Source: Limnothrix sp. BL-A-16 (lineage in GTDB: Bacteria > Cyanobacteriota > Cyanobacteriia > CACIAM-69d). From it: 64,000 bases of DNA. Where the stretch lies: the NCBI GenBank assembly GCA_041937175.2, contig CP166615.1:3232001-3296000 (forward strand), written 5' to 3'. Shown here in pieces: positions 11,056-44,679 of the stretch; within the stretch, counting starts at the first letter, position 1; each line of letters opens with the position of its first letter. A program made the translations under genes and the position numbers. Below the pieces are notes generated by a model, which saw nothing but the letters and a program-made list of their open reading frames with translations, was not told where the DNA came from and did not search any database.

Positions 11056-11117
11056 GGCATCACTGGTTTAAGTCCCTGCCGTCGATCGGGGTTTGAATCG
11101 ATCGCGCCCCTAGGTTT

Positions 11118-15579: not shown

Positions 15580-15619
15580 GGTTGCAAGACCTGGGAATGA
15601 TCGCCAGAGTGATGCCCTC

Positions 15620-16342: not shown

Positions 16343-17090
16343 GAACCGACTCAGCGGGAGGATTCAGGGGCGGAGCCGGAGCCACCCGCTGGGCCGGACG
16401 GGGCAAATCATCACGCCAAGGGCCCAGCAGTTGCACCGAAACCCAGGCATAGCCCGCATAGGCCGGAATGGTGACCGCCGCGAGCAGGGCGGCAATTCCC
16501 CAACCCCAATTGCGGAAGCCGGGCCCTTGGTATTGGGTGCGATAGGGATCAAAGGGCAGAGCTGATAAGTCCAGTTCGTCGCGCAAGTGCAGCGGCCGGC
16601 GAAATCGCACCCGGCGATCATCAAACTTTTCCAACAAAATCCAACCGGCCAGGGCTTCTTCGCGACAAAGTTGGGCAAAGGTGACAGGATTGGCAAAGAG
16701 GGGGCGCTTGGCGCGCACAATTTTGTATTCCCACTCGATCGCCTGGCGCTCCGAAGGCGCGGTGTCCAGGGGGGGCAAGGCGGCCACGGCCGGATCGATC
16801 GGGCGGTGCAAACTCCGCAAAAACTCAACGCAATCGATTAAGTCGGGCTGTGGTGCGAGGTCGCATTGTCCGGCGCTGGGGTCTACTGCCCGTAGCACCG
16901 ATGTGAAGTTTTGGGGCGATCGGCTGGCGGGGGAACGGGGCATCCGGCGCGTGGGCCACAAGGGCACCTCACGGGAATCGGTATCGTAATCATCGCGATC
17001 GTAATCATCGCGGTAATGATCAAAACCTTCTTCGCGAGCTTCATCCGCCGAGGGAAAGCCGGAAGCATCGGGGCCGGATTGCACCGTCAT
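16239..17090 (-). CDS. Hypothetical membrane protein
   Basis: WEYKIVR...EEALAGWILLEKFDDRRVRFRRP conserved-looking core plus TM helix. Confidence 0.65.
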   Translation of the reverse strand: MTVQSGPDASGFPSADEAREEGFDHYRDDYDRDDYDTDSREVPLWPTRRMPRSPASRSPQNFTSVLRAVDPSAGQCDLAPQPDLIDCVEFLRSLHRPIDPAVAALPPLDTAPSERQAIEWEYKIVRAKRPLFANPVTFAQLCREEALAGWILLEKFDDRRVRFRRPLHLRDELDLSALPFDPYRTQYQGPGFRNWGWGIAALLAAVTIPAYAGYAWVSVQLLGPWRDDLPRPAQRVAPAPPLNPPAESVHELPAFPNSSRDPSSSNSNSSADLSSRSPLSRST

Positions 17091-28400: not shown

Positions 28401-29781
28401 TGCGCAGAATCTGATTTTCTGGCTGGCCAAAGGGCACATTACCGCTCAATTCCGAATCATTAATGCCCACTAAACCGGGCACAATCCGAATATCCTGGGG
28501 ATCCAGCAGCAGCGTGCCCAAGGGGCCCAAGGGAGCCGTCAGATCCACCGTTCCCCGCACGGCCAGTTCCCCCTTGGCCGACAGTTCCACAAAACCACCC
28601 GGGCCACCGTTGGGGCCGCCCCGGGCCGCGATCGCCCCGCTATACCAAGTCAAACCATCGGCCCAAACAATCACCTGACCGCCTGCCCCTCGATCGGTGG
28701 CGTTGGCCTGAATTTGGCTGGCCCGATCGACCCAAGTGGCCCAAGCGCTGAACAGATTCCCGCTGCCCCGTTCGCTGCCGCCAATTTGCACCCGACCGCC
28801 CCCCTGAGGGCCGCTGGCTTCCAAATTAGCCCCCACCAAACCCACCCGATCGCCCCCGATCGTGATGCTGCCGCCGGGGCCGGTGGAGCGAGCGGTGTCC
28901 ACATTCCCGGCCACCACCACACCCCGATCGGGCAAGGCCACGGGCCCCGACGCGGCCGATTGCAACAGCACCGAGCCATCGGGATTGATCACCAACTGGG
29001 ACGCGGCGGCGGTGGGGCTGCCGGCCAACAATTCCGCCAGCGATCGCCCCCCGATCGCCCCCGGTTCCGGCAAGGCCACTTCCAAGGTCAAGGTGGATCC
29101 ATCGGGCGCAATCCTGACCCGATTCGTGCCGGGAATGGCGGCCACGGTCACGTTGCCCCCGGGCGCTTGCAGCCGGCCCGTGGACACCACGGAACCACCG
29201 CCCAACAGCCACAGATTTTGTCCTTCGCCCACGGCAAGGGAACCCCAGTTCAACAGATGACCAGGGCGATCGCTCACAAAATCCAGCCATTGCAAGGAGC
29301 CACTCAAGCCGCGAAAGTCTACGGGCCCTTGGGCGGGAAACCAACCGCCATCGCTGAAACCCAGCCGATCGGCGGTGGTGGCCATAAACGAAGCGGGCAC
29401 ATCCAACCGGGCCCCAGCCCCAAACAGGATCCCCGCAGGATTCATGAGATATAAATTCGCCTGGCCGCCGGAGACCCGAATCAGCCCTTCAATCACGGAC
29501 GGTTCACCCCCAGTGACGCGCCCGACGATCGCCCGCAAGTCCGGTGTGGCCAAAAAGTTAGCGATTTCCTGGGAACTGAGGCCCAGCCGCTGAAAGCTAT
29601 GGAACAGGTTATCGCCCGATCGGATGCCGCCGCCGATGTTGTATTGGTTGCCCTGTTGTTGGACGGTGGTGCCCAGGCCGTCGTTGGCGGGAACGATCGC
29701 CGGTTCGGCATGGACGGGGCTGGCCAGGAGGGCCATGCCGATGCCAAAAATCCCGATCGCCGTTTGCCGGTAACTACCCAT
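25417..29781 (-). CDS. Filamentous-hemagglutinin N-terminal (TPS) domain + CHAT protease protein
   Basis: [24 protein letters not shown], Gly-rich beta-helix repeats, PS/PT linker, CHAT HLATHA and LSACRTA, terminal HPYYWASF. Confidence 0.9.
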
Positions 29782-29919
29782 GGCTTTTCCTCGCTCGATC
29801 GCTGGGGGTGGATGTGTCCTTAGGGCGATCGTAGCTCGCAAACGGTTGATTAACCCTGGCTTAATTTGGAGCGGCGGGGTGGTTGGGGCGATCGGTTTTG
29901 GGGGTGGATGGTGGGGTTT

Positions 29920-29938
29920 GGCCCCGGGGGATGGGGCC
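29920..29938 (-). CRISPR. Degenerate terminal (trailer) repeat
   Basis: GGCCCC-GGGGGAT-GGGGCC keeps the repeat stem and 19-nt length, one spacer length (39 nt) from the first full repeat. Confidence 0.7.
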
Positions 29939-29977
29939 AATCAATGCGATTGCGCAACGCAAGGTCGATTTTTGCGG

Positions 29978-31843
29978 GTTTCCAATCAAGTGGGGGCCCC
30001 AGCGAGTGGGGCCCTGGTTGAACTGGCCTACAAGGTCAACGAAATCCCGGCGTTTCCAATCAAGTGGGGGCCCCAGCGAGTGGGGCCTCTGCTGTGCCGA
30101 CCACCAATGGGGCCGTTGAGGTGGGTCAGCCAGTTTCCAATCAAGTGGGGGCCCCAGCGAGTGGGGCCCGATCCACGGATTTTGGTGCAATCCCACCCGA
30201 TCGCTCAAGGTTTCCAATCAAGTGGGGGCCCCAGCGAGTGGGGCCAACCAAGGCAGCGGAAGCGCTGGGAGCTAAGTTCGATGCGCTGGTTTCCAATCAA
30301 GTGGGGGCCCCAGCGAGTGGGGCCTTGAGATCCCACCTGTACTAATCAATTCGCTGATGTTTCCAATCAAGTGGGGGCCCCAGCGAGTGGGGCCAAGACC
30401 GCTCTTTACTTTGAAGAATCCGAAGCAACGCGAAAGTTTCCAATCAAGTGGGGGCCCCAGCGAGTGGGGCCTTGGGATTGCCGTAATTACTTCTGCGACT
30501 GAACCCCCGGGTTTCCAATCAAGTGGGGGCCCCAGCGAGTGGGGCCATGGAACACTGGCAGGCGGATGGACTACTCCCCGAAGCGGTTTCCAATCAAGTG
30601 GGGGCCCCAGCGAGTGGGGCCTCCGTTGTTGTTGAGAGGTGAGGACTCGGGCGATCGATCAGTGTTTCCAATCAAGTGGGGGCCCCAGCGAGTGGGGCCT
30701 AGAAACCTTGCTGGCTAAGGAGCCGGAGTTGAAATACCAGTGTTTCCAATCAAGTGGGGGCCCCAGCGAGTGGGGCCGATTTGGGCGCGGAGACCAGCAA
30801 CTTCCTTGATGTCCTCGTTTCCAATCAAGTGGGGGCCCCAGCGAGTGGGGCCTTTGCATCGATCAATTGCCGATTGAGGGCCCGGTCAAGTTTCCAATCA
30901 AGTGGGGGCCCCAGCGAGTGGGGCCTCGAGTGTCTGGTTGGTTGTCCAGATCGAAAAAGAAACTCACTGTTTCCAATCAAGTGGGGGCCCCAGCGAGTGG
31001 GGCCACTGATCGAAACCTCCTGATTCCGCATTGGAAGGGTTTGCACTGTTTCCAATCAAGTGGGGGCCCCAGCGAGTGGGGCCTTGACATGGACTACGAC
31101 GAAGAGTTAAAGTTCGCGATCGCCTACTGGTTTCCAATCAAGTGGGGGCCCCAGCGAGTGGGGCCTTTGATCGCTTGCGTGAACGTGTTGACGCTCTTGA
31201 GAGTTTCCAATCAAGTGGGGGCCCCAGCGAGTGGGGCCGAGATTCGATACTTCGAGGGGGGATCCTGCAAGGCGAAATTGTTTCCAATCAAGTGGGGGCC
31301 CCAGCGAGTGGGGCCCTCTCTATTTTGAAGAGGCTGAGGCAGTTAGAAATTGTTTCCAATCAAGTGGGGGCCCCAGCGAGTGGGGCCTTTGGAAGCCAGT
31401 CAACGGGTGATAGACCAGCGCCAAAACGTTTCCAATCAAGTGGGGGCCCCAGCGAGTGGGGCCTTTGCCTGCTTTCTTGGCTTCTTATTTGATTAATGGC
31501 GAGTTTCCAATCAAGTGGGGGCCCCAGCGAGTGGGGCCCTAGATTCTAAGCAGATCGGTCAACTGACTGATGAGTGGTTTCCAATCAAGTGGGGGCCCCA
31601 GCGAGTGGGGCCCAATTAAGAGCCATGCCTAAAAAGATACCCAATCCAGGTTTCCAATCAAGTGGGGGCCCCAGCGAGTGGGGCCGTTTTGTTATGTCCC
31701 TACACATTCTTCGTGGCGCATATAACTGGTTTCCAATCAAGTGGGGGCCCCAGCGAGTGGGGCCTTGGTGACTGTTCTGACAGTAGCGATATAACCTTCG
31801 TCGTCGTGTTTCCAATCAAGTGGGGGCCCCAGCGAGTGGGGCC
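29978..31843 (-). CRISPR. CRISPR array: 25 identical 36-bp repeats (minus strand GGCCCCACTCGCTGGGGCCCCCACTTGATTGGAAAC), 24 spacers of 34-46 nt
   Basis: Counted directly; orientation from the 3' GAAAC end, right-side leader and left degenerate repeat. Confidence 0.98.
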
Positions 31844-32050
31844 TCCCCCCCAAATTAACCCTTGTGGCGTAAGGGTTGCAAGGTGCTCGATCTACAACCT
31901 CCCAAAGGACTGGACAAAACCCAAATTTTTGTTCCATGGAAAACGTCCAAAGCTCTTGCCCCACAACCGATCCACAACCTCCACGACAAAATGCGGGTTT
32001 CAGCCGATCGCCCCAGGTTGTAGATTTCCGACACATTGCGTTACAAAATG
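31844..32050 (-). promoter_or_regulatory. CRISPR leader
   Basis: Non-coding; GATC(T/C)ACAACCT motifs at 31889 and 31969 with an inverted copy at 32015-32025. Confidence 0.75.
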
Positions 32051-32123
32051 ACCGATCCTGACGGCGACGACAGCGGCCGCCCGCCCCAAACCTCCGCCTG
32101 GGCCAGCATTTGAACGGGCATAG

Positions 32124-33374
32124 TTACGTCGCCAAAGCCGATCGAATTTCGGCATTCAGGCGATCGAACGGATTATCTGTTAGCGAAACCGTCACAATTC
32201 CCTTCAAAATTCGGCGCAATTGATTCAACACCTCGTCAGGATTTTCCATGCGCGAAATACCCTTAAACTCATGCACCATTTGATTGCGATCGGCGCAGAG
32301 ATTTTCAATTTTGTCTAAATCTTTCAGCAGTTCTTTCGAGTCAGGATAACAATCCAAAATCAGCCGCATGGTCAGGCGATTGGGAAAATAGCTGGTGCGG
32401 ACGGCGCGATTTTTGGGGGCTGCCTGCTCTAGGGTGCGATAGACTTCACCGGATTTGAGAGCCTTGACCGCTTCCCAGAATCGATCGGTGTCGGCCTCAT
32501 TTTTGGGAAATTCTGCTAGCTGCCCGATCGCGTATTTCAGCACATTTTCTTGGATGCCAAATACTCGCGTAAAAAAGGTGAAATAGTCGCGATTGTTCAG
32601 CGACAACACTGCATTGAAATAGGCTTCCGCCAAAACCGTGGGCTTGTGTCCCGATCGCAGCTTGCCAATGTCCTTAGCCCAGCGATCGTCGATTTGGCCC
32701 GCCAGATTCTGAATCGCATCGTTGGCCCCATGAAAGTCGAAAGCCTTGCGACAACGGGCATATTCCAACAACCCTTGCAGGCGATCGGTTGCTAACTGGC
32801 TGGCTTCCAACTCCAACCAAGCACCGCTGTAGTTGTAGTCGGCAATTTGTTGCTCAATTCGCTTGCGATCGAACTCCTGCCGCAACACCAAAACATCAGT
32901 CGCAAACACCCGACTTTGATTCGGCTGCATTTTCTCGGGATTGCGAACTTGCCACACTTGGCTGTTACCGGCATAGCCCGCCGCCTGCAACAAACTGAAG
33001 GCCGATTTCATCGCTGGCGTACCCGAAGAGGCGTTAAATTCAATGCGATCGCCTGGCTCCAGCAGTAATTTCACCTGCTCCAAACCACGCTTCGCTTCTT
33101 GGGCTGCCAATAACAAATCGGTCGGGTCTTTTGAGAGTTGATTGCTAGTGGGAATTAGCTCCACCGACAACCCCGATAATTGCGCTTCTGATTCGATATG
33201 ATCTTGGGTGTCGCGGGCGTTTTTGGCTGTGCCTTCCGTATGGAGCAACAGCACTTTTTTAATCGTTGTCCCCCGATTCAACAAAAATCGCAGCAAACTA
33301 ATGATCGATCCTTCGGTTTCCGTCGCGGCAAACGGATCTTGATTACCCACAAACGACAAAACAACACTAGCCAT
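32124..33374 (-). CDS. CARF (RtcR/Csm6-like) + HEPN ribonuclease, putative cOA effector
   Basis: SFVGNQDP, DPTD, NASSGTPAMK CARF motifs; C-terminal RNQMVH (Rx4H). Confidence 0.78.
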   Translation of the reverse strand: MASVVLSFVGNQDPFAATETEGSIISLLRFLLNRGTTIKKVLLLHTEGTAKNARDTQDHIESEAQLSGLSVELIPTSNQLSKDPTDLLLAAQEAKRGLEQVKLLLEPGDRIEFNASSGTPAMKSAFSLLQAAGYAGNSQVWQVRNPEKMQPNQSRVFATDVLVLRQEFDRKRIEQQIADYNYSGAWLELEASQLATDRLQGLLEYARCRKAFDFHGANDAIQNLAGQIDDRWAKDIGKLRSGHKPTVLAEAYFNAVLSLNNRDYFTFFTRVFGIQENVLKYAIGQLAEFPKNEADTDRFWEAVKALKSGEVYRTLEQAAPKNRAVRTSYFPNRLTMRLILDCYPDSKELLKDLDKIENLCADRNQMVHEFKGISRMENPDEVLNQLRRILKGIVTVSLTDNPFDRLNAEIRSALAT

Positions 33375-33422
33375 GATTTTGAGTTTAGAGAGATCGGCTT
33401 TAGTTTGGAGAAAAATCAACCA

Positions 33423-34085
33423 TCAATCGACCAGTTCAGATTTGGCTACGGGTCTCGTGTTTATCTCTGTTTGAATTTGGGCATAAAGCAATTGAGCCTG
33501 TCCCTCGATGGATAAACTAGATGAAATGCCAATCGCTAGACCAAGGAACAATCCCATCAGGAAAGTGCCTATAAATCCACTAAATCCTAGAAAACCACCC
33601 AAAACCAACCCTAAAAGCAGTCCAAACAATCCTCCAAAAATGCTATAGCCTAACAATAAAGATTTCGCTTGGTTGCGAAGTCTGGATGCTACTTTTAAGG
33701 CAAATTCGGGATTATAAACCAGTCGCATTTGATCAGAAGACTGTGATAATTCTGAGTACACTGATTCAGAGTATTGCTGATGAACTTCAGTGCCCGTTAA
33801 ATAAAAAATCTCATTCCAAATAGGTCTAAGTTGTCCAGTTTTTCTGGCTTCAAGGTTCAGAACTTCGATTCCTTCCGGTTGAATCGTTTTGAGGCCACGC
33901 ATCAGGCGATCGCGGATTTGTTCTAGTTGGGGTGGATTTTCTCCCTCAAAGGTCAGCTTCAGTTCATTGCCGTTGGTGCGGCCTTTACAAGTCCAGCCCT
34001 CTTTTTGGAACGATCGATTCAGCATCGCCGCGATCGCCCCTGGTTTGCCCTGTTTTGCCAAGTTGAGAAGCGTGTTATCTGCCAT
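33423..34085 (-). CDS. Hypothetical membrane protein within the cas operon
   Basis: Soluble N-terminal domain (LAKQGKPGAIAAMLNRS) plus Gly-rich two-TM hairpin. Confidence 0.75.
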   Translation of the reverse strand: MADNTLLNLAKQGKPGAIAAMLNRSFQKEGWTCKGRTNGNELKLTFEGENPPQLEQIRDRLMRGLKTIQPEGIEVLNLEARKTGQLRPIWNEIFYLTGTEVHQQYSESVYSELSQSSDQMRLVYNPEFALKVASRLRNQAKSLLLGYSIFGGLFGLLLGLVLGGFLGFSGFIGTFLMGLFLGLAIGISSSLSIEGQAQLLYAQIQTEINTRPVAKSELVD

Positions 34086-34148
34086 GACTGGATTCCTCCA
34101 AGGTTGATACACAACAAACGTGAAAAGGGCGATCGCAGAGCAAGCCAA

Positions 34149-34808
34149 TCACTGGCGATCGGAGATCACACTAGATCGCAACTGTTGGCGAAGCTGGGCT
34201 TCCGCTGCAATTTCATCTTGTTCAGAAGCCGCCAAAAATTGATAGAGCTGGGCTTTTTCGATTGTGGGAAAGGTGGGACTTTGGCTCAGTTCTTGATAGG
34301 TTCGATCAGTTTGGAGGGCATAAATTTTCCATTCCTGACCGTTGTAGCGCCAAAATTCAGGAATTCCGAGGCTGGCGTAGAGGTTGAGCTTGTCGATGTC
34401 GGTGTGGGTGATGTCAATTTCTACGACCAGATCAGGCGGTGGATCGGTGTTCAGATCAATAGTTTTGCCAGCGACTTTGGGTTGATTTTGAATGTAGTAA
34501 GCGAGGTCTGGTTCGGCGGCGCGATCGAGATCGGGGCGATCGAGCCTGGTCGATCCCAAGCTTTTGAGTTTTAGCCCCAGTTCTGCAACCAAGATGCGAA
34601 TAAACAAGCCGATTAATTCACGGGAAAATTCATGCAGTTCCAGGGGCATAACAAGTTCAATTTTGCCGCGATCGTAGGTTAGCCGCACCGATCGTTCTTC
34701 CCCCAACGCGGCTAGCAAGTGGCGATATTGTTCAGGGGTGCGATCGCATAACAAAAAACGCTGCTCTGCGATCGGTCTAGATAGTTTGGACTGAATCAAA
34801 ACAGTCAT
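34149..34808 (-). CDS. Uma2-family (PD-(D/E)XK) endonuclease
   Basis: EPDLAYY, PPDLVVEIDIT, YASLGIPEFWRY. Confidence 0.9.
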   Translation of the reverse strand: MTVLIQSKLSRPIAEQRFLLCDRTPEQYRHLLAALGEERSVRLTYDRGKIELVMPLELHEFSRELIGLFIRILVAELGLKLKSLGSTRLDRPDLDRAAEPDLAYYIQNQPKVAGKTIDLNTDPPPDLVVEIDITHTDIDKLNLYASLGIPEFWRYNGQEWKIYALQTDRTYQELSQSPTFPTIEKAQLYQFLAASEQDEIAAEAQLRQQLRSSVISDRQ

Positions 34809-34835
34809 AGTCTTACAAAGCCCCTATTGCAGTCA

Positions 34836-36323
34836 TTACAGCTCATTAACTTCCTCAACTAGTTTCTGATGTACCAAAACCATCAGACTGGCAACACCAT
34901 CTTCATCATCAACTTGATCGATTAACTTGAAGTTTTGATCAGAAATAAAATTTAGGCAATTCAAAACACACTTTTTCCAAAGACTTTCAGGATCAAAGGC
35001 TCTGGGATCAATTTTCCAAGCCTGGAAAACGGATTCTTTTCCTTTTAATCCTGAAAGTTGATGAAATAAGTCATTTCTATTCTTAAATACATGATTCCCA
35101 AACGTCCATATATCTAGATTTCGTGATTTATCAATTCGCTTCTCAAGGTTAAGGGCAAAATATAAGTCTTTTCCATAGCGATTGAGATTCTTTTCTCCGA
35201 TAGTGATAACTCTTGATTCAGCAGGAAATTTCCGATCAGCCCATTTTCGCAATAGTCCCTCAACAGCCCGAAAGCTGTGGAACATAGCTTCCACAGTGTC
35301 TACGCGCTCCAGGCGCTTCACGGCTAGATAAGCAGACTCATAGGCTGTTGACCACCACAATTGCTTTCTTTGAAGAGCCAAGTCATGAAAGTAAGGAATT
35401 AAACTTAGCGTGTCAAAGAACTTGTCGAATTCTGCAAAATTCCACTGAATTGCAGCCTCCAGCAATAGGCTCAGCTCTTGAGATAATCCAAAATTGAGCA
35501 ATTCTTGAACTGCTGCATAATTGCCAAATTTCAGTAGCTCTCTTGCTTGTTGCTTTTTAATTCCGCGCAGATAGCTAGAGCTTTCAATGAACTGCGCTGA
35601 GTTTTCTTGAGTGTCGCTTGTCTTGAGATTATTTTGATTTTCACTGGTGACTAAGAAACGTACGCGATCGCCAAAGTAGGACAAGGACATAAACTGCACA
35701 GCCGAAGAAATAGCCGGTGTGCTAGCCTGATGGCTCACGTACACTTGCTCAAGCTCGCCATCAGTTGCCAGTAGATCATTATTTAAAACGGCAAATTTTT
35801 GGCGCACCAGCTCCAGTACTGAATCCCAATTATCCAAACTGTCCGCAACAGTCTCTGGTTGCAAAACAATTGGCTCTACTACTTGAGCATTCGGCAACTG
35901 CTCGCTAAAGTAGCGCTTTAAAATTGGGAGCAGTTCAGAAGTATCTTGCCAATACGGGCTTTTTACCCCTCGTTCAGTCCGACCATCTGCAAAAATCTTG
36001 GATTGGTCAGTCAGGACTAGAACGATTTGATTTAGTTCACCAGGCTGCCGCACTTTCCGAGTGAAGTTTTCTAAAAGAGGAAAAACCAGTTGGCAAAAAA
36101 TAGTGCTTTGGATCTCTGATTGATTTTGATAAACAGACCCAAGAACCCGTGCAGGAACGCGAAGCACTTCATCATTACTTTTAAAGTGAATCTTCTTAAA
36201 ATCTACATGATACTTCTCATCATAATCTACTTCAAGACACTCATACCAGTCATCCCAGCAAGAGTTTCTTTTCAACTGAATATCGCTGCTGCCGATTGTC
36301 AAAATCCAAATCTTAATCTTCAT
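34836..36323 (-). CDS. Divergent CARF-like + HEPN protein, putative second effector
   Basis: TIGSSD, LTDQ, QDT, HQASTPAIS Rossmann-like motifs; FRAVE and RNDLFH (Rx4H). Confidence 0.62.
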   Translation of the reverse strand: MKIKIWILTIGSSDIQLKRNSCWDDWYECLEVDYDEKYHVDFKKIHFKSNDEVLRVPARVLGSVYQNQSEIQSTIFCQLVFPLLENFTRKVRQPGELNQIVLVLTDQSKIFADGRTERGVKSPYWQDTSELLPILKRYFSEQLPNAQVVEPIVLQPETVADSLDNWDSVLELVRQKFAVLNNDLLATDGELEQVYVSHQASTPAISSAVQFMSLSYFGDRVRFLVTSENQNNLKTSDTQENSAQFIESSSYLRGIKKQQARELLKFGNYAAVQELLNFGLSQELSLLLEAAIQWNFAEFDKFFDTLSLIPYFHDLALQRKQLWWSTAYESAYLAVKRLERVDTVEAMFHSFRAVEGLLRKWADRKFPAESRVITIGEKNLNRYGKDLYFALNLEKRIDKSRNLDIWTFGNHVFKNRNDLFHQLSGLKGKESVFQAWKIDPRAFDPESLWKKCVLNCLNFISDQNFKLIDQVDDEDGVASLMVLVHQKLVEEVNEL

Positions 36324-36327
36324 AACA

Positions 36328-38115
36328 TTAGTTCCTTCCCCAAACTAGTTGAAACTCTGCTGGATCAGTTGATGAGGATTTCAAAAAATCAAGAAACTCT
36401 CTACATTCGTTAGAGTCGTCCAAGAAAATTGTTAAAATCTCGAAGAATTGATCAGTTTGAATAGCCATTTTCTCTCCTGGCTGATTAGGATTGTCAATTA
36501 AGCAAATTTTAGGATACATGCGATGGATAACTCTACCAATAGTAGATTTGTCAGATTCAACTAACCCCGTTAGAGAAGTCTTGTAAATTGATTTCTCCTG
36601 CTCAGTCTTCAAAATTGCCCGTTGATAAGGCTTATGAAACCAAGACACTGCACGAGAATCACTCATACCTTCAGCCAAACGTGCCCACACTTCAACTTTG
36701 CTAGGATGCCAAGACTCTCGCCAATTTTTAGCCCATCGATCTGATTGAATGGTTAACTTTTCTTGCTGTTCGAGCCATTCACGTTTCAATTCCATCCATT
36801 CACTCGCTGTTGATCGAACACTATCTAAAAACGAGCAAATGCTTTTAATACTCGAAACACTCCTATTGAGTCTCCGGCTCTTTTCATCTGACCACTCCCA
36901 ATGGCAACCAATTAGAGGCTTATAACCGCGAGAATTTTGATAGTAGACATTCCAAAATTTTTGGTGATCAACTCGTCGCCAAGATTTTCCGAATCCACCT
37001 AAAAATAAAGCAAACTGCATCAGCTTTTTAATTAGCTTTGCTAGTGTTTTTTCGTGATGAGAATCATCTAGTGATCGATTTAGAAGCCAAACCAAATTCC
37101 CTTCAACAACATACTGTCCTGAAGGAAAAGGTTCGACATTTGGTGGCAACGGGTGAAACTGGAATCCAAGTAAACCAACAGTTGGTTTGTTAGATTGAAT
37201 CCCTCCAAAAAGGTCTTCAACTAGTCGCTCTGCTATTTTACAATCTGTCAAGCCACCAAATAGACGCAAAGCATGGCCTCGCAATGCAGCACGAAAAATA
37301 TTAGGGCGAAACTCAGCTGAGCCATCTAGCAGCTTGGGGGCTTGCCCTTGACCCTTGAGTTTTGCTGAATACAAAACCTTACGCACCTTAACAGATGTCG
37401 CTTTCACAGACTGCCCATAGCCCGTGGCAGTCTTAGAACCCAAGCCAACGGATAGTGCTCGCTCCCAAATTGTCCAAATCGTTTGCCACTCAGCATTCAA
37501 TAGTGGTTGATTACTCGAAATGGCAAAACGCAACTTTGGCTGATACAGTGAAACCATGGAATAGGCCGTTTCACCAGACGGCTTTTTATCTGTTTTCATG
37601 GTTTTAACCTGCCATTCTTGCTGAGGGTGAACAAGGTCAATTAGGCCCTTTGTCCAATCATTGGTTGGATAAGCACCAAGAAAGCGCAGAATTCCGGGGC
37701 ATAGATCGGTTTCTTTGCCGCAATAGCGATCAGTGCTGCCTACCAACACCATTCCTAATGCCTCGGCCTGCTCACAGGCACTCCGAAACGCCCCCTTCAT
37801 ACTGCTGCCTGGATAGAACGGAATTCCCGCCTTCCCCAAAACCGGCCGAATAATCCCATCATCCTGACCTCCATTAGTGACAAATCGCCAGGAAATTTGA
37901 TAGGACTTAGCACTATAAACCGGTGTTTGTTCGTCCTTAGCATCCCGAGCAGGAATCTGTTCAGCCTTGTCAATCCACTCATTAACCCACTTATCAATGT
38001 CGCGTGGTTGGCCGTCTTTAGTTTTACCTGCATATTGCAGTTTGGATCGCCCATCAATCTGAGCGCGAAACATCCTCGGTACTTCTTCATAGCTGTCAGG
38101 AATCGCTGGCATCAT
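36328..38115 (-). CDS. cmr6: Cmr6-Cmr1 fusion RAMP protein
   Basis: First RAMP (PGSSMKGAFR...GLGSKTATGYG), second RAMP (FRAALRGH...LGGFGKSWRR). Confidence 0.82.
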   Translation of the reverse strand: MMPAIPDSYEEVPRMFRAQIDGRSKLQYAGKTKDGQPRDIDKWVNEWIDKAEQIPARDAKDEQTPVYSAKSYQISWRFVTNGGQDDGIIRPVLGKAGIPFYPGSSMKGAFRSACEQAEALGMVLVGSTDRYCGKETDLCPGILRFLGAYPTNDWTKGLIDLVHPQQEWQVKTMKTDKKPSGETAYSMVSLYQPKLRFAISSNQPLLNAEWQTIWTIWERALSVGLGSKTATGYGQSVKATSVKVRKVLYSAKLKGQGQAPKLLDGSAEFRPNIFRAALRGHALRLFGGLTDCKIAERLVEDLFGGIQSNKPTVGLLGFQFHPLPPNVEPFPSGQYVVEGNLVWLLNRSLDDSHHEKTLAKLIKKLMQFALFLGGFGKSWRRVDHQKFWNVYYQNSRGYKPLIGCHWEWSDEKSRRLNRSVSSIKSICSFLDSVRSTASEWMELKREWLEQQEKLTIQSDRWAKNWRESWHPSKVEVWARLAEGMSDSRAVSWFHKPYQRAILKTEQEKSIYKTSLTGLVESDKSTIGRVIHRMYPKICLIDNPNQPGEKMAIQTDQFFEILTIFLDDSNECREFLDFLKSSSTDPAEFQLVWGRN

Positions 38116-38116
38116 C

Positions 38117-38545
38117 TCACTTCCCAATTTTGTAACGCTGAGTCCACCAAACCAAGCAATCGCAAAGCTGTGTCAAAACGGCGATCGCCACTCGTTGATC
38201 TTCAATTGATAAAGACCAAAGTTTTTTGGAAACTTCTTCAATCTTTTTGGAAGCTTCTGAATTTTTTAAATCAACAGTGTCTTTAGGCAATAGAATTCCA
38301 GCGTCTTCCATTACTCCACAGAAGGCATCCCACGTATCTTTCCAATATTTAGATTTTGCCACCTCCAGATTCTCTTTTTTATTACCACTAGCCAAGCGCA
38401 AATGTTCTCCCCAAAATCGCTCTAGTCCATAGGCCACGGACATACGCATTTTGTGGGATTGATTCATAGAGTCTGGATCACGCTCACGTGCTGACAACAC
38501 CAATTTCTGCGCAACACGATCAAGTTCATAGGACTTCCAAGTCAT
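38117..38545 (-). CDS. cmr5: Cmr5-like small subunit (Cas11)
   Basis: 142-aa helical protein between cmr4 and cmr6; YGLERFWGE and LVWW motifs. Confidence 0.72.
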   Translation of the reverse strand: MTWKSYELDRVAQKLVLSARERDPDSMNQSHKMRMSVAYGLERFWGEHLRLASGNKKENLEVAKSKYWKDTWDAFCGVMEDAGILLPKDTVDLKNSEASKKIEEVSKKLWSLSIEDQRVAIAVLTQLCDCLVWWTQRYKIGK

Positions 38546-39357
38546 TACTGGTCACCTCCTGAGAGCAACACACGACAGCGACCAAAGCCAATGGATTCGA
38601 GTCCACCAAAATAGATTTCAGATTCCTTATGCTCTCCAAAGGGTTCCCATCCGTGTTCTTTTAAGGCAATAGGAAAAATCATAATGCTCCCTTCTGGTAA
38701 AGCTTCAGTATTGAAAAATGCCCCCTTCGTAACCTTTTTCTCAGCATCATCGAGTTTGACTCGGCTTTGACGATAAAGTGCCATGTCATGCAGCATGGAA
38801 ATATCATTGTCATCAACGACCACGAGCTTATTTCGATCTAGATCAATATCAGCAGGCACCCAAGGAGATAGATCAGCCGTATTCGTAATCTCCAAAAATC
38901 CAAGATTGAAGAACAGAATTTTTCCTCGTCCTTGAACTTGTCGTCCTTGTAGCCCTTTTGGTGCAGTGTAGGGTGCAGGTACATCGGCTTTGATGCCTGT
39001 AATCCGTTTATAGCGCTTGAGCAAAGATGGGCAACTCACCCAAACCACCGGCTGTCCTGGACAGAAAACTGGAAACCAAACCAATGAAGCATATTCAAAC
39101 TTCACCAAGGCTTCAGTAGTTCCGCCATCTGGTTGATTATCTACAGCTTCATGACCATACCAGTAGTTAGTTGCTGTGCGATCCGAACCCCGCATCTCTG
39201 CCCGAAAGCGACCACGAATCGAACTACCGGGAATAATGCCGGTTTGGGTGAACTGATCCCGAAAGATTAGGTTCAAATTACCGGTTTCTTCACCCGCCGT
39301 TGCCCCCACATGCAACGGGGCAAGGGTTTCAATTATGCCGAACGCTCTGTTGTACAT
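38545..39357 (-). CDS. cmr4: Cmr4 (Cas7 backbone RAMP)
   Basis: PLHVG, IIPGSSIRGRFR, FNTEALPEG, GGLESIGFG. Confidence 0.9.
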   Translation of the reverse strand: MYNRAFGIIETLAPLHVGATAGEETGNLNLIFRDQFTQTGIIPGSSIRGRFRAEMRGSDRTATNYWYGHEAVDNQPDGGTTEALVKFEYASLVWFPVFCPGQPVVWVSCPSLLKRYKRITGIKADVPAPYTAPKGLQGRQVQGRGKILFFNLGFLEITNTADLSPWVPADIDLDRNKLVVVDDNDISMLHDMALYRQSRVKLDDAEKKVTKGAFFNTEALPEGSIMIFPIALKEHGWEPFGEHKESEIYFGGLESIGFGRCRVLLSGGDQ

Positions 39358-40445
39358 TCTGGGACTCCTTGAATTTCAACCGGTAAACATAGACCACATC
39401 CCAATTGCTTGAGTGAAAATCCTTCCTTGGGAAACCACTCTTCAGGAAAATCCCACCAGGTCATGTTTAAAGGCTCGCGGAAAACATAAACACTGCCACT
39501 GGGAACGGCATACCGCCCTCGCCCTAGTCGCCGCCCTTTTCGAGGATCATCTTTGTTTTGACCCACTCGATAGCGATAGGGCACAGGTTTATCCATCAAC
39601 AACTTGAGGTCACGCTTCGGGAAACTCGGATGTTGTGGATAACGATAGGAAAGGTTATTTGACCCCCAAACGGCCGGAGTGATTAAGGCAAAAGCATGAG
39701 AGATTTTTTGAGCTAGCAACCGATTTAATGGATGTCGCTCGTTAATTGGTTTAGTTTCAATCTCTGCCAAATGTCCTTCGCCACCAAGCCGATACCAACC
39801 ATTGAGATCAATAGTTTCCAAATTAGTTAAGTAAACTAGGCATACATCTTCAGGAAGTTGAACAGCATTTTCCAAAAACAAGCCATCTTCATGCAATACA
39901 TGACGCTCATCATTCCGCATTTGAGTATGTAGGAATGGGGTTGATTTCCAGGGAGATGATCTAAGAGACTGATCGTTTTCTTTAATTTCCTCGTTAGTCC
40001 AGTTCCAGGTATTAATGCGTTGCCAGATGGTTGATGCTGAACCCTTAATATCTCCAGATCCTCGATGCCAGCGATATTGATTGAGATATTGACTATTTGA
40101 CTGATTGGATTGTCGTGCTAGCGACCACTCATCTACTGATGCCCATTTATTTTCGCCTGTTGCACCAATGATCCGATGACGAGGCATAGGCACATAAAAG
40201 TCTTTAGGACTCCTGGTGTATGCCCAAAATGGTCCCGCAACCACTAGTTCTTGTTGAAGTAGGCTTGGATTCATGAAGTTTTGAATTTGATTTGCACCCA
40301 AAATTAGTCCAGATATTGCAGCAGCATCGGGAGGAAATTTATAGTTGGATTTGCCTACCAGACTGCCTATCGACAGAAATCCTCCAGAGCTGGCATACAT
40401 AAAGCCCAATGGAGAAATAGTCACTAGAGATTTGAATTCCGACAT
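39333..40445 (-). CDS. cmr3: Cmr3 (Cas5)
   Basis: FPPDAA, LGGEGHL, LITPAVW, YAVPSGSVY, KQLGCG. Confidence 0.88.
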   Translation of the reverse strand: MSEFKSLVTISPLGFMYASSGGFLSIGSLVGKSNYKFPPDAAAISGLILGANQIQNFMNPSLLQQELVVAGPFWAYTRSPKDFYVPMPRHRIIGATGENKWASVDEWSLARQSNQSNSQYLNQYRWHRGSGDIKGSASTIWQRINTWNWTNEEIKENDQSLRSSPWKSTPFLHTQMRNDERHVLHEDGLFLENAVQLPEDVCLVYLTNLETIDLNGWYRLGGEGHLAEIETKPINERHPLNRLLAQKISHAFALITPAVWGSNNLSYRYPQHPSFPKRDLKLLMDKPVPYRYRVGQNKDDPRKGRRLGRGRYAVPSGSVYVFREPLNMTWWDFPEEWFPKEGFSLKQLGCGLCLPVEIQGVPECTTERSA

Positions 40446-42181
40446 AATTGCCACCCTACTTCGATCAGATCATCTACCCACATGATGAAGCGAAAGCCTT
40501 TATCTACAAACTCGAGATTTCCAAAGAATTTATGCAGCCCATCTCGCATTACTGCACTCCAAATTCTAGAGCTTTGATTCTGGAAGTACAAATCAAAAAT
40601 TGTCTGGGCTACGTCACGATGTATAGGGCGATATTTCTTCGGATCGAGCAAAATAGCATGGCGATCCTTTAAAGCAGCCCAATCACTGTAGATATGACTC
40701 CAGTTCGCTTCAGCACCTGTTTTGTTGTTACGATCGCAATAGCTATCCAAAATTGCTAGCTCATCCCAGGGGCAAGTCCATTGCACAAATCGACCGCTGT
40801 TGAACACGATGCGGATGGTGACTCGATCGCGCCCTAGGTTTTTTGAGCGTTGTTCAGCTTCTCGGCAATGCTGCAAAATATCGCGTTGTGGAACCTGATG
40901 ACCAGCCCAAACAAACCCCACGCTATACGTCAGCTTAAATCCCAATTCGTGCTGCGTATCTGCTTGGATTTGTTGCCATTTCTCGGGGAGCTTTTTTAGC
41001 CAGTTCCATGCTTCAATCGGCTGAACTTTTGCTGGCAATTTATTTGAGTTACTAGGCTCTTCGCTATAAAGAACACCAAGAAAGTCATCCCCACCAGCAT
41101 AAATCACACGCCCCTTTCCCTCAGGAAATAGCTCTTTTGCTTTGGCAAACTTTTGCCCCCAATTTCGCATTAAGGTTGAAAATCGTTGAAGATTGCGATC
41201 ACGTTTTTGGGGGCTATCAGGATAGCGATTAGCCAGGTCAGTTAGTTTGTCACCCACCTTGTCACCATCGCCCATAAACCAACCTGTCCAGTAATCCTTC
41301 TCGCGGTAAATATCGCGAAACGACGTTTCAGGATGATCAATGCCAATATCAAGCGCTAATGGCTCAAAGGTAACAAGGCGTTTTGCCAGCTCAGGAATGC
41401 TCAAGCGTTCGCGGGGGCTGATAAATTTCCCGCCGTCATTATCTGGATTAGCAAAGTGATCCTTCAGTTCCTGATCAGAAGGAAATGATTGATGGCAGCG
41501 CTTAAAATCATCCAAAATCCAGGCTAAGCGAAGATAAAAACGCTCGATATCCTGTCTTTCGCTGGCTGAAAACGATCGCCCTGGATTGTTGTCAGGTTTG
41601 CCCAATCCGGGCCAGGCGATCGCATCAGTTCCCGTAATACTGGAGCTTTCACCAACCCAATTAATCCCAATCCAATCCCGCTTCAGCTTACGAGTTTCCA
41701 AGTCCTCCATCGCTGATTGGGGTGTTGTGCCATAGCCCCAAAACACTTCCCACGCATAGAGTCCCCAGCGCTCCCACTCACCGGCCCCACGCCGATCGCC
41801 CGGGATGGGCTGTGACCAAAAGTAGGACTCACTGGGTAGGTTCTGCTCAATCCAGCATCGGCAAGATTGAAGGAGCATTTGCCAATGCTTGAGCAGACTC
41901 TTTTTGACATCATGGCGCTTAATTTTTGGCCCTTTCAGCAAAATGCGATTGGGCATACCTCTTTGATGATCAATGCAGGCAGGGGAAATTACTTCAGCGC
42001 TCTGCCCATCTGCATTTCGGGTTAGGTCTTCAATTAGTTTTTGGCTCAGATAGGACAAAATTTGGGAAGCGCCAAACAAATCACGCAACTTACGAGACTT
42101 TTCGATGAACCCTTGGACGGGCGCAAAACTAATGGCGGTGTAAATGACGGCGGAATCAGACATCTTCTGTTCTGAAGTCAT
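40424..42181 (-). CDS. cas10: Cas10/Cmr2 lacking the HD domain
   Basis: Begins directly at PVQGFIEKSRKLRDL; GDGDKVG and YAGGDDFLG palm motifs; only 585 aa. Confidence 0.92.
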   Translation of the reverse strand: MTSEQKMSDSAVIYTAISFAPVQGFIEKSRKLRDLFGASQILSYLSQKLIEDLTRNADGQSAEVISPACIDHQRGMPNRILLKGPKIKRHDVKKSLLKHWQMLLQSCRCWIEQNLPSESYFWSQPIPGDRRGAGEWERWGLYAWEVFWGYGTTPQSAMEDLETRKLKRDWIGINWVGESSSITGTDAIAWPGLGKPDNNPGRSFSASERQDIERFYLRLAWILDDFKRCHQSFPSDQELKDHFANPDNDGGKFISPRERLSIPELAKRLVTFEPLALDIGIDHPETSFRDIYREKDYWTGWFMGDGDKVGDKLTDLANRYPDSPQKRDRNLQRFSTLMRNWGQKFAKAKELFPEGKGRVIYAGGDDFLGVLYSEEPSNSNKLPAKVQPIEAWNWLKKLPEKWQQIQADTQHELGFKLTYSVGFVWAGHQVPQRDILQHCREAEQRSKNLGRDRVTIRIVFNSGRFVQWTCPWDELAILDSYCDRNNKTGAEANWSHIYSDWAALKDRHAILLDPKKYRPIHRDVAQTIFDLYFQNQSSRIWSAVMRDGLHKFFGNLEFVDKGFRFIMWVDDLIEVGWQLCRNSNL

Positions 42182-42408
42182 GTTGAAAGTCCCGTGGCCT
42201 AATCAAGCTTGAAGCGACTTGATTGTTTTCACATCTGTGCCTTGGCTACCATCCTAAGGGATGCATCCCCTAAGCGAGGTGTAAGTTTTGATATTGTTTA
42301 TTAAGCAACATCAATGCTTGTAAGGCTTTGTGTTGTTGGGTTTGGCGCGATCACCCTCTGGCCGGGAAAATAATATTTCTGGGTAGGCGGACGGCTGGAG
42401 ATGTGTTA

Positions 42409-43575
42409 ATGGCAACCCGATCGCATCATGGGTACGAGGAGCCGATCGCCTTCGATCGCCTGCTGCTGTTGGCGGCCCTGTTGGCTCAGGAGCCGGGCAG
42501 CGGAGCGATCGAAGCGGGGGGCTTGGCTGCGATCGGGGCGGCCCTGCGCGATCGGGCGACGGCCCTGGGGCGGCCCTTTCCGGCAGATTACCCCTCGATT
42601 CCGACCTTGCGGAAGGATTTGGCCACCTTGCGGGCCTACGGACTGCTGGGCGATCGGATGTATCGCTGGGGCTATTACCTAGGGGTGGGTGGGCTGTCAG
42701 CGGCGGAACTGACGATCGCCCTGAATGGGTTGCGGCTGATGGCGATCGACCTGGGCGATCCACAGGTGGCCCAATGCTGGGAGGCGATCGAGCGGCGGCT
42801 GAAGTCTTGGGATGCGGAGGCCAAGGGGCAACTCACCTATCTGCTCCGGCGATCGCTCTCGCGCCCCGTGAGTGAGCAAGACCCGATCGCCCGGATGCAA
42901 CGGGGTCAAGATTGGGATCGGCTGGCGGAACGGTTGGAGGCGATCGAGCAGGCAATTTTGACCGGCCAGGCGATCGAACTGAAGGTGGCCCGCTCACCAC
43001 ACCCGGACGATCGGGGCGATCGGGAGCGGCTCTATCCGTTGCAGTTGCTGTTTTACGACGTGGGTTGGTATTTGCTCTATGAAAAAGTGGATTCGGGCCA
43101 GTTTGCCACCCGGCGGATCGATCGCCTGAGTGCGGAGGTGCGACCGTTGCCGTTGCCGCCCCGGGGCTTACGGATCCAATGGCAACGGCTGCGGAAAGCG
43201 ACGGATCTGCTTTCGGCCGGTTGGGGACTGTTTTTAGGGGAAGCGACGGAACAGGCGCAGGAGTTGGCGGGGCGGGAATCGTTGGTGTCGGCGGCGGTGC
43301 GGTTTTGGCGGCCGACGGCGGATTTTATTGCGGAGGGCGATCGCCGCCACCCATCCCAGGAGATGAGCTGGGGAAGTTCGACGGGCGAGGGGCGCGATTG
43401 GTTGGATTTTCGGGTGCGGTTGCCGAGGCGATCGATCGCTGAGTTTGGGCGGTGGGTGCGGCGGTATGGGAGCGATGCGGTGGTGCTGGAGCCGCCGGAG
43501 TTGGTGGCGCAGTTTCGGCAGATGGCGATCGCCCTGGCCCAGGCCTATGGGGTTGGGGCAGGCGGTTCTAGCTGA
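42409..43575 (+). CDS. HTH-WYL-WCX transcriptional regulator, divergent from cas10
   Basis: TLRKDLATL HTH, LYPLQL..GWYLL, RIDRL, YGSDAVVLEPPEL; RBS GGAG. Confidence 0.88.
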   Translation: MATRSHHGYEEPIAFDRLLLLAALLAQEPGSGAIEAGGLAAIGAALRDRATALGRPFPADYPSIPTLRKDLATLRAYGLLGDRMYRWGYYLGVGGLSAAELTIALNGLRLMAIDLGDPQVAQCWEAIERRLKSWDAEAKGQLTYLLRRSLSRPVSEQDPIARMQRGQDWDRLAERLEAIEQAILTGQAIELKVARSPHPDDRGDRERLYPLQLLFYDVGWYLLYEKVDSGQFATRRIDRLSAEVRPLPLPPRGLRIQWQRLRKATDLLSAGWGLFLGEATEQAQELAGRESLVSAAVRFWRPTADFIAEGDRRHPSQEMSWGSSTGEGRDWLDFRVRLPRRSIAEFGRWVRRYGSDAVVLEPPELVAQFRQMAIALAQAYGVGAGGSS

Positions 43576-43976
43576 TTGAGGGCCCCGCAGATATATTTCT
43601 TGACGGTTTCGCGGCTGGCGGTCACGCCGCTGGGCAAGGTAAACACCATCTCAACGGTGGTTTGGTTATTTTCTGCGAAGGCAAATACGTCAATGGGCAA
43701 GGCCCGTTGAAAGGCGGTGGCGGGATTTTCGGCGCGCATCGTACCGTTGGCTACGTCGGTGCTGAGGGTGCGAATGCCTTCGCGGGCCAAAATCACCCGC
43801 AGTTGAAAGAAGGCTCTTTCGACGGATAGGCCTTGGACTTGGACGCGGGCGAAGTAGGCGGAACCGTTGAAGAAGTCGCCTTTTTTGTCGAAGCTTTCTT
43901 CGCAGGTGGTGGCCAGGGCGGGCGTGCCAAGGCAGAGCAAGGCCAGGCTCAGGAGGAGCGATCGCATGGTTTGCAT
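43545..43976 (-). CDS. Small secreted hypothetical protein
   Basis: Signal peptide ending PALA; two Cys. Confidence 0.72.
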   Translation of the reverse strand: MQTMRSLLLSLALLCLGTPALATTCEESFDKKGDFFNGSAYFARVQVQGLSVERAFFQLRVILAREGIRTLSTDVANGTMRAENPATAFQRALPIDVFAFAENNQTTVEMVFTLPSGVTASRETVKKYICGALNQLEPPAPTP

Positions 43977-44119
43977 GATCGGGTCGAAGAACAAAACCTC
44001 AGGATTGCCGATCGGGAATGGGCATGGCCATAGCGGTGTGACACAAAGGAGCCACAGCACGCGATCGTGTAGAGCAATGATGGCGGCCCAAGTAATCGGA
44101 AATAGTCGGCTTGCCCGAT

Positions 44120-44184
44120 CAACCGATCCACAACCTCCGCGAAACAATGCGGGTTTTAGTCGATCGCCCCAGGTTGTGGATCGG
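44120..44184. repeat. Second copy of the CRISPR leader core with no array
   Basis: 44120-44181 matches 31964-32025 at 56/62 nt; 14-bp perfect inverted repeat 44123-44136 / 44171-44184. Confidence 0.9.
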
Positions 44185-44195
44185 CTCATTGTTGA

Positions 44196-44465
44196 CTAGC
44201 CGACCGTGATATTCGGCTCCTCGCAGAAATTCACCAACACCGTTTCGCTTTCCGACTCATCCTCAAACACAAAGCTGATGTACCACTCACAGGGCGAATC
44301 ATTCGTATGTTCCGCCCAAGTGACCGTTGCCCCCTCCCCAGAAGCAATTCCCTCTTCTGGCAAATCGAACTGCGACCACTCCTCATCATCGGGCGAAACC
44401 CAAATTTCCAGAATGGTTTGATCGGTGTTGTTGGTGACCGTAAAGCTAAACAAATCGTCCGACAT
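44196..44465 (-). CDS. Small acidic beta-rich hypothetical protein
   Basis: 89 aa; FTVTNNT...EIWVSP...W...CEW...NFCE pattern. Confidence 0.65.
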   Translation of the reverse strand: MSDDLFSFTVTNNTDQTILEIWVSPDDEEWSQFDLPEEGIASGEGATVTWAEHTNDSPCEWYISFVFEDESESETVLVNFCEEPNITVG

Positions 44466-44679
44466 GGGGGGTATATCCCAAAATTGCAGAATACGGCTCC
44501 GTTCTAGACTCCAAACCGGGTCGCTGTGGGCTTTCCTTAGCTTTTCTTCACCACGCCGTTCCCTTGCCCGCAATTCAAATTTCAACTCCTATGCTGAAAT
44601 GAAACCCTGGTCGATCGGGCGTTCCTGAACCGATCGGTCTTGGTTTTGATGGTTTTTGATCAATTAGGAGCAAGATTCG

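Follow-up and report, generated by a model that had tools for sequence, protein, structure and literature searches.

An intact type III-Bv CRISPR-Cas locus of Limnothrix sp. BL-A-16 with an HD-less Cas10 and a putatively slicer-deficient Cmr4

Organization of the locus

The chromosome of the cyanobacterium Limnothrix sp. BL-A-16 carries a CRISPR-Cas locus of type III-Bv, a variant of type III-B, which we analysed within a window of 64,000 nucleotides (nt) (assembly GCA_041937175.2, contig CP166615.1, positions 3,232,001 to 3,296,000; all coordinates below are those of the window). The locus comprises ten reading frames, all of which are intact, plus a CRISPR array; families were assigned to its open reading frames (ORFs) with the Pfam, NCBIfam and PADLOC profiles. 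The core genes lie on the minus strand and begin with cas10 (40424-42181; 585 amino acids (aa); PADLOC Cas10b PDLC02051, 3e-195; Pfam Cmr2_N and Cas10-Cmr2_palm2), followed by cmr3 (39333-40454; PF09700, 2e-12; PDLC01640, 1e-13), cmr4 for the backbone subunit (38545-39357; PDLC01441, 3e-26; TIGR02580, 4e-23, which is under the 87-bit cut-off of that model), cmr5 for the small subunit (38117-38545; PDLC01476, 2e-60) and cmr6/1, which encodes a 599 aa-long Cmr6-Cmr1 fusion (36328-38127; PDLC01212, 2e-183).

Downstream of this core, on the same strand, are encoded a CARF-HEPN RNase of the Csx1 type (34836-36323; PDLC01795, 1e-111; PDLC01508, 4e-88), a member of the PD-(D/E)xK-like endonuclease family Uma2 (34149-34808; PF05685, 2e-21; PADLOC PDC-S17, 6e-37), a small membrane protein without any family match (33423-34148; 220 aa from its likely start at 34085) and a CARF-HEPN RNase of the Csm6 type (32124-33419; PDLC01806, 8e-141; TIGR02672 csm6, 1.6e-24, under the cut-off), for which the likely true start at 33374 gives 416 aa. 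A leader of 280 nt (31844-32123, minus strand) separates the Csm6-type gene from the first repeat of the array (29978-31843, minus strand). On the plus strand, a WYL+WCX gene diverges from cas10 (42328-43575; PF25583 WCX, 6e-9; PDLC01036, 4e-23); the WYL domain itself matches PF13280 at 3e-4 with 21.2 bits, slightly under the 21.8-bit cut-off. The original prediction, made from the letters of the DNA, had described this closely spaced order from cas10 to the Csm6-type gene, and all of its genes are present. Profile searches assigned the Cmr core, both CARF-HEPN proteins, Uma2 and WYL, and left the membrane protein without a match. A leader and array had likewise been placed behind the effectors; both exist, but the array lies outside the segment then attributed to the system, which started at 32124.

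The host genome (4.56 Mb in two contigs, 100% complete, the locus being on the 4.54-Mb chromosome) contains no match to Cas1, Cas2 or either of the two Cas6 families (PF10040, PF01881), and no Cas6-family match was found among the scanned ORFs of the locus. Since there is one RAMP match (E ≤ 0.001) and one Cas10 genome-wide, and no second copy of the array of this repeat, the locus is the sole CRISPR-Cas system of the strain and is interference-only. The same single RAMP match and single Cas10 rule out a second CRISPR-Cas system as supplier of Cas6, Cas1 or a slicer.

Membership in the III-Bv clade

When cmr6/1 was used as query, matches at E ≤ 1e-10 were obtained in 67 of 401 sampled cyanobacterial genomes (Limnothrix sp. 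BL-A-16 included), 49 of them at E ≤ 1e-50. The synteny set consists of 40 loci, one per genome, taken from the best matches; a few sibling genomes and weaker matches were left out. Cas10/Cmr2, Cmr3, Cmr4 and Cmr5 are encoded in one operon, and the order of the five core genes recurs in the related loci wherever the contig reaches. In the AlphaFold model of the cmr6/1 product (pLDDT 71.8, pTM 0.75), residues 244-595 correspond to Cmr1 (9l7c_A, Z 20.8, root-mean-square deviation 3.4 over 272 residues; 4l6u_A, Z 19.8; 4w8x, Z 16.9) and residues 3-238 to Cmr6 (3x1l_H, Z 12.2). The protein also aligns, with an hhalign probability of 98.4, to a 683-aa fusion from G220, a genome of the sister genus, which itself has a Cmr1 profile match. 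As modelled, the protein is a Cmr6-Cmr1 fusion, Cmr6-like in its N-terminal half and Cmr1-like in its C-terminal half.

The CRISPR3 system of Synechocystis is described as a variant of III-B in which Cmr1 is fused to Cmr6, Cas6 is missing and processing falls to RNase E (PMC6546367). The kinship with this system that had been proposed for the Limnothrix locus is borne out by the Cmr set, the fused Cmr6-Cmr1, the lack of Cas6 and a matching repeat tag. In the array, 25 repeats of 36 nt, all identical, alternate with 24 spacers that are 34-46 nt long; the 3' end of the repeat on the minus strand is CUUGAUUGGAAAC, and 12 of its 13 bases match the 13-nt 5' tag reported for Synechocystis CRISPR3 (PMC3575380). 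The repeat RNA is predicted (-15.7 kcal/mol, z -2.6) to form a 5' stem-loop of 7 bp and to leave its tail single-stranded, and a stem-plus-tail layout is likewise described for the Synechocystis repeat (PMC12464536). Because the genome lacks Cas6, the precursor CRISPR RNA (pre-crRNA) is most likely cut by the host RNase E, the product of a single gene in this genome, within the single-stranded repeat tail; such a cut would leave a 13-14-nt handle like that of Synechocystis CRISPR3. The leader region shares 88% identity with that of the sister strain G401 over window positions 31808-32113; when scanned for promoters and terminators, neither the leader nor the WYL-cas10 gap showed a promoter (sigma-70) consensus.

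Arrays with the same repeat are present in relatives; six arrays compared (24, 80, 23, 25, 10 and 31 spacers) have no spacer in common. Together with the presence of Cas1 beside some of the relatives' loci (L067, L072, L108), this indicates that the lineage has been adapting, though this genome cannot. In G220, two arrays of the same repeat flank the cas genes (locus L102, contig G220:C3, approximately 2575-3350 and 14562-16466), and nine of the 33 repeats carry a compensatory C4T/G16A pair that preserves the stem. Searched against the host genome, the Limnothrix spacers gave no full-length match, only short ones of 14-22 nt, mostly from a motif in spacers 3 and 9. This short motif (spacer 3, 30169-30209; spacer 9, 30622-30663) has dozens of copies in the genome, with exact matches of 14-16 nt; it fits spacers derived from cyanobacterial or cyanophage DNA, and is not self-targeting. 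The gene next to the array, a 1507-aa ORF (25417-29940, minus strand), begins 38 nt past the last repeat in the same orientation; it combines an N-terminal TPS secretion domain with a C-terminal CHAT protease domain and has a native GC content of about 60-63%.

We conclude that the locus is genuine and intact and belongs to the known III-Bv kind, and that much of what had first drawn attention to it is ordinary for the clade.

Cas10 and Cmr4

The Cmr2_N/Palm1 motif of the Limnothrix Cas10 starts at residue 14 (residues 16-54), whereas the same motif occupies residues 240-278 in Cmr2 of P. furiosus (4w8y); by sequence and profile, the HD nuclease domain that would precede Palm1 is missing. The cyclase motifs GGDD (363-366) and GDGD (304-307) are invariant in all 31 aligned sequences, so that the earlier description of an HD-less Cas10 that keeps GGDD proved correct. 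Cas10 was matched 37 times in the 40 loci of the clade: two of the matches are fragments, and the other 35, with ORF lengths of 489-587 aa, align right from the N-terminus. As all 35 full-length proteins are HD-less, the loss of HD is a property of the clade. It is also common elsewhere: among 1113 type III loci, an HD domain is reported to be recognisable in 39% and a cyclase in 92% (PMC11229360). An HD-less Cas10 is therefore unremarkable, being the rule in this clade and frequent in type III. By sequence, the closest solved Cas10 is 9arw_A, a distant match (E 7e-9), and a search of the PLSDB plasmids with the Cas10 query gave no match to pSYSA of PCC 6803.

The backbone subunit departs from characterized homologues at its presumed active site. 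When a profile of 29 clade Cmr4 proteins was aligned to solved chains, Asn29, in the loop GNLNLIFRD, paired with Asp26 of P. furiosus Cmr4 (GVVDQPIQRE) and likewise with the Asp in the S. islandicus chain 6s6b_D; chain 9arw_C gave the same pairing by single-sequence and by profile alignment. Asn29 is invariant in the 29 aligned clade sequences. The Cmr4 query retrieved 1892 protein clusters (90% identity) at E ≤ 1e-5, and of the best 120 homologue clusters 119 display GNLNLIF and one GNLSLIF, none having an Asp in the loop. At the level of clade ORFs, the loop motif is found in 37 of 38, the last one (L070) being out of register, and the Cmr4 encoded on a plasmid of Synechocystis sp. B12 has the same loop. 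In P. furiosus Cmr4, a D26N substitution is reported to abolish target RNA cleavage with binding intact (PMC4762429), D26A likewise abolishes cleavage, and D86A lowers it (PMC4333402); D86 aligns with Tyr89 here. From the Asn in place of the slicer Asp we infer a loss of slicing by Cmr4, which we consider somewhat more likely than not on these alignments. Among the papers listed in literature searches on III-Bv and Cmr4, on Synechocystis CRISPR3 and on the slicer, no title or abstract opening points to such a loss of the Asp in III-Bv.

With its cyclase motifs invariant and both HD and the slicer Asp gone, the Cmr complex may be a genuine sensor that only signals. The original prediction had spoken of a pure RNA sensor; the HD-less Cas10 agrees with this, and the Asn at the slicer position lends it support which it had not had before, while the output of cyclic oligoadenylate (cOA) and the loss of slicing are still inferred. 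Carried to the whole cyanobacterial III-Bv clade, the proposal would be that of a naturally slicer-dead, nuclease-free complex which emits a signal only and is not shut off by its own cutting of the target. Shut-off and immunity would then be left to the CARF-HEPN RNases and, in the Limnothrix lineage, also to a new membrane protein which lacks CARF and is genetically coupled to Csm6. We put this broader proposal forward tentatively, at somewhat under an even chance.

Several observations weigh against the signal-only reading. The Asp-to-Asn call comes from alignments of hidden Markov models over a loop that requires a one-residue gap, and this loop is described as disordered and flexible in the apo crystal (PMC4333402). 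Invariant acidic residues near the loop (E23, E24, D34 and E88) might substitute for the Asp. In the III-Bv system of Synechocystis, single deletions of slr7080, slr7083 and slr7088 are reported to leave plasmid interference intact (PMC6546367), so that the core complex there must have some activity of its own, unless the effectors are redundant; these three genes are not CARF-HEPN genes of the kinds present at the Limnothrix locus. Finally, phage and plasmid collections yielded no protospacer for any of the spacers, IMG/VR contains no exact match to the newest one, and the array cannot be updated in this genome, as it has neither Cas1 nor Cas2.

The first of these points, from the alignment gap to the Synechocystis deletions, would suit a conventional III-B system, in which Cmr4 still slices by way of residues such as E23/E24, D34 or E88 and cOA signalling plays an ancillary part, as it does in many type III systems without HD. 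This alternative is a serious one that we nevertheless regard as unlikely: it has to accommodate the complete lack of Asp in the loop among the best 120 relatives, the fact that the engineered D26N change alone abolishes cleavage in P. furiosus, and the Tyr at the second important acidic position, D86. In addition, the Cmr4 of a different Cmr cassette in G220 (see below) has a gap at the very position of D26. The lack of Cas1, Cas2 and Cas6, and of any spacer target in the host genome, in the phage and plasmid collections or, for the newest spacer, in IMG/VR, could rather mean that the locus is a frozen relic, inherited and no longer defending the cell. We find this improbable, given ten intact frames, 25 identical repeats, conserved catalytic motifs and the wholly different spacer sets of relatives with the same repeat; III-Bv systems are, besides, reported to work without Cas6 (PMC6546367, PMC12464536).

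CARF-HEPN RNases and the nature of the signal

Both CARF-HEPN proteins have intact HEPN motifs. All seven aligned relatives of the Csm6-type protein share its HEPN motif, RNQMVH, and its CARF motif, NASSGTP, without any change; the Csx1-type protein has the HEPN motif RNDLFH, and RNxxxH is retained in all 24 full-length orthologues. A Csx1-type homologue follows cmr6/1 directly in 23 of the 40 loci (tblastn). PADLOC profiles were applied to a set of 27 III-Bv loci, from which three sibling loci and those without a co-oriented ORF within 800 bp had been left out; in this set the first co-oriented ORF after cmr6/1 encodes a CARF protein 25 times, mostly of PDLC01795/01508 and otherwise CARF-RelE, PDLC01808, PDLC01796 or the Csm6 type. 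The Csm6 type is encoded in just two of the 40 loci, yet in every close relative. The Csx1 type is thus an accessory gene conserved across the clade, and the only such one. CARF-HEPN effectors had been announced behind the Cmr genes, and the profile matches and intact HEPN motifs of the Csx1-type and Csm6-type proteins uphold this; the first of the two, then called CARF-like/HEPN, is indeed a CARF-HEPN protein and is more than CARF-like, being a full member of the Csx1 family.

As the Palm/cyclase pair of Cas10 is the only conserved catalytic centre of the complex, its output is probably cOA. Other products are known from HD-less III-B Cas10 proteins, and 9arw_A, the closest solved one, is only a distant match, which leaves some room for another Cas10 product such as SAM-AMP. 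We hold this to be very improbable: both conserved effectors are CARF proteins, the SAM-AMP route is described as marked by CorA (PMC12669027), and no CorA-type effector, SAM lyase or NrN was found among the scanned genes.

The Uma2 gene

The original prediction counted four genes in an effector cassette. All four have one orientation and close spacing, the Uma2 protein matches the PADLOC defence-candidate family PDC-S17, and contigs of the public runs X1 and X5 carry Uma2 at this very site with about 95% identity, so that the insertion is common to close strains. A cassette in which the Csx1-type protein, Uma2, the membrane protein and the Csm6-type protein are all signal-driven is nonetheless a doubtful reading that we rate low. 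No sensor domain was found in Uma2 with the Pfam, NCBIfam and PADLOC profiles, and Uma2 is a family of 57 copies in this genome. In loci L107 and L109 Uma2 is missing and the csx1 and membrane genes lie 70-90 nt apart; in G401 both contigs break, at the spot of Uma2, in the two ends of a multi-copy insertion sequence (IS) element. Among the 40 III-Bv loci, a single one has Uma2 nearby, on the opposite strand. Judging from these comparisons, Uma2 appears to be a passenger insertion rather than a conserved part of the system, which leaves three genes in the cassette.

The element that interrupts the junction of csx1 and the membrane gene in G401 also occurs in the window, at 754-1659, with ORFs at 771-1157 (DDE_Tnp_4) and 1166-1600 (HTH_Tnp_4); its ends have about 10 copies in the genome.

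A membrane protein paired with Csm6

The small membrane protein has no match in Pfam, NCBIfam or PADLOC. Its model (pLDDT 70.9) consists of an alpha-alpha-beta-beta-alpha-beta-beta domain (residues 1-95, pLDDT approximately 80-86), a disordered linker (residues 99-124) and two helices, 126-166 and 168-210, which form a hairpin through a glycine-rich hydrophobic stretch. Fold matches are weak: the best Foldseek hit has an E-value of 0.087, VIA-align gives Z 7.8 to generic helical hairpins and Z 7.4, for the N-terminal domain, to KhpB/EloR, and in the Atlas the TM-scores reach at most 0.48, to cyanobacterial proteins with the same N-terminal domain. Homologues form 12 clusters and were located at one place in genome contigs and at five metagenome loci; their N-terminal domain is near-invariant, and three of them have a different C-terminus with a weak DUF4177 match.

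The N-terminal domain (33800-34085, about 95 aa) has distant paralogues (28-30% identity) that form the N-termini of further proteins encoded in this genome (G000:C1:1205204-1205494 and 827691-827984) and in relatives. Similar modules in the Atlas head cyanobacterial CapA, EcsC, CheW, TrkA and polysaccharide-deacetylase proteins and belong to no Pfam family; a Pfam search of the membrane protein and of two paralogous N-domain proteins at E-values up to 1 returned nothing usable.

Wherever the sequence continues past the membrane gene, a Csm6-type gene follows, i.e. in six of six loci (the window, G401/L079, L107, L108, L109 and L110), and the two genes, a conserved pair confined to this lineage, occur alongside either of two Cmr cassettes. 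This gene linkage suggests that the membrane protein works jointly with Csm6 or is a membrane effector in parallel to it, and the pair is a candidate new ancillary family.

The WYL gene and exchangeable Cmr cassettes

WYL homologues are encoded in 15 of the 40 III-Bv loci, six of them divergently and directly beside cas10, and L107 and L109 have a homologue with 77% identity. In G220, L108 and L111, the same repeat lies beside a different Cmr cassette, which encodes a Cas10 of 1036-1059 aa, Cmr3, Cmr4, Cmr5 and a Cmr6-Cmr1 fusion of 668-688 aa, with a PD-DExK gene also present in G220. The long Cas10 proteins (1036 and 1059 aa) have about 220 additional N-terminal residues with an HD dyad, at positions 18-19 in G220 and a few residues later in L111. 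Among these loci, WYL is found in G220 and L111, and the membrane gene with Csm6 in L108; L111 ends inside the membrane gene. In place of the pair, G220 has a gene for a single chimeric protein that joins a Csm6-type CARF to a Csx1-type HEPN domain. A separate Csx1 comes with the HD-less cassette and not with the HD-bearing one. Gene content hence portrays the WYL gene, the membrane-Csm6 pair and the array as a frame whose Cmr cassette is HD-less in some loci and HD-bearing in others, which cleanly exemplifies effector-module exchange.

Genomic setting

The cas and accessory genes have GC contents of 41-50%, the genome being at 55% and the WYL gene at 64%. The congener G402 has an empty site, devoid of the locus (L094, contig G402:C70, 1424-1817), in which 58 bp matching window positions 31989-32046, in the leader region, lie 19 bp from a homologue of 44196-44512; this junction marks the right edge of the island. 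The left flank of the empty site is unlike that of the window. We consider it likely that the locus was acquired horizontally and constitutes a stand-alone module for interference, of the cyanobacterial III-Bv kind, residing in a low-GC island.

A 214-aa ORF without family match (43545-44189, minus strand) also lies within the segment missing from G402; it is convergent with the WYL gene, with an end overlap of about 30 nt. Public sequencing runs covered at most 27% of the sampled words in any run, and in the metatranscriptome run X17 Uma2 and cmr6/1 are covered in part, and csm6 at its end, by short contigs, which are no demonstration of transcription. Elsewhere in the window, a 992-aa ORF (19258-22236, minus strand) combines a calpain-type Peptidase_C2 with a PPC domain, and tandem repeats are present at 14370-14815 (68 bp, 6.7 copies, 93% matches) and 11117-11250 (14 bp, 9.6 copies).

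Proposed mode of action

In the mechanism that we propose from the protein families and from the work on Synechocystis, the Cmr complex, composed of Cas10, Cmr3, a Cmr4 filament, Cmr5 and the Cmr6-Cmr1 fusion, would bind complementary transcripts, upon which Cas10 would emit the signal. This would activate the Csx1-type and Csm6-type RNases; judging from their families, sequence-unspecific RNA decay would follow and the infected cell would stall, the outcome being growth arrest or abortive infection. The membrane protein most likely works with or beside Csm6 at the membrane, and the WYL protein, from its position, probably controls transcription of the operon. Dormancy or abortive infection under WYL control had been supposed in the original prediction as well.

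In type III systems, the cutting of target RNA is a built-in timer that stops Cas10. Engineered slicer-dead complexes are reported to over-signal, with autoimmunity in one archaeon (PMC9368842). If our interpretation is true, a large natural clade that has lost the slicer Asp and HD and kept the cyclase, strictly selected, would be a natural experiment on how a signal-only sensor can be safe, and would offer a ready-made non-cleaving RNA sensor for diagnostics. Beyond what had first been read from the locus, the points worth follow-up are the clade-wide loss of the slicer Asp and HD, the membrane-Csm6 pair and the exchange of cassettes.

Comparison with known systems

The closest parallel is CRISPR3 of Synechocystis sp. 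PCC 6803, for which Cmr2-Cmr3-Cmr4-Cmr5, a Cmr1-Cmr6 fusion and the lack of Cas6 are described (PMC6546367, PMC3575380, PMC12464536). The two systems share a repeat with a 5' stem-loop and a single-stranded tail, a handle alike in 12 of 13 bases and a cyanobacterial host with RNase E. Unlike CRISPR3, the Limnothrix locus is chromosomal, lies in a genome without adaptation genes, and has as accessories the Csx1 type, the membrane protein, the Csm6 type and the inserted Uma2. Its two RNases resemble known Csx1 and Csm6 enzymes in their full-length profile matches and intact R-x4-H motifs; the difference is that two paralogous types occur here in one locus.

The small membrane protein recalls Cam1, Csx23, CorA and Cap1/Chp1 in that its gene lies within a type III locus whose Cas10 is HD-less, and differs from them in having no CARF, no SAVED and no detectable match to a known sensor. 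Csx23 is reported to bind cA4 by a soluble domain that is not a CARF (PMC11014256; PMC11229360).

With respect to the complex itself, the III-B system VmeCmr likewise has an HD-less Cas10, and its immunity is reported to run via cOA and an ancillary nuclease, with very slow slicing of the target (PMC8682760). VmeCmr, however, keeps the Cmr4 Asp, its residual cleavage being lost upon D26A, works with cA3, the DNase NucC and a type I-F Cas6, and is itself borne by a prophage (PMC8682760). In subtypes III-G and III-H, as described in the 2025 classification, Cas7 likewise lacks conserved catalytic Asp residues (PMC12669027). An apparently active HD and predicted DNA cutting are retained there (PMC12669027), whereas in the Limnothrix locus HD is gone and it is the cyclase that is conserved, which leaves the signal as output.

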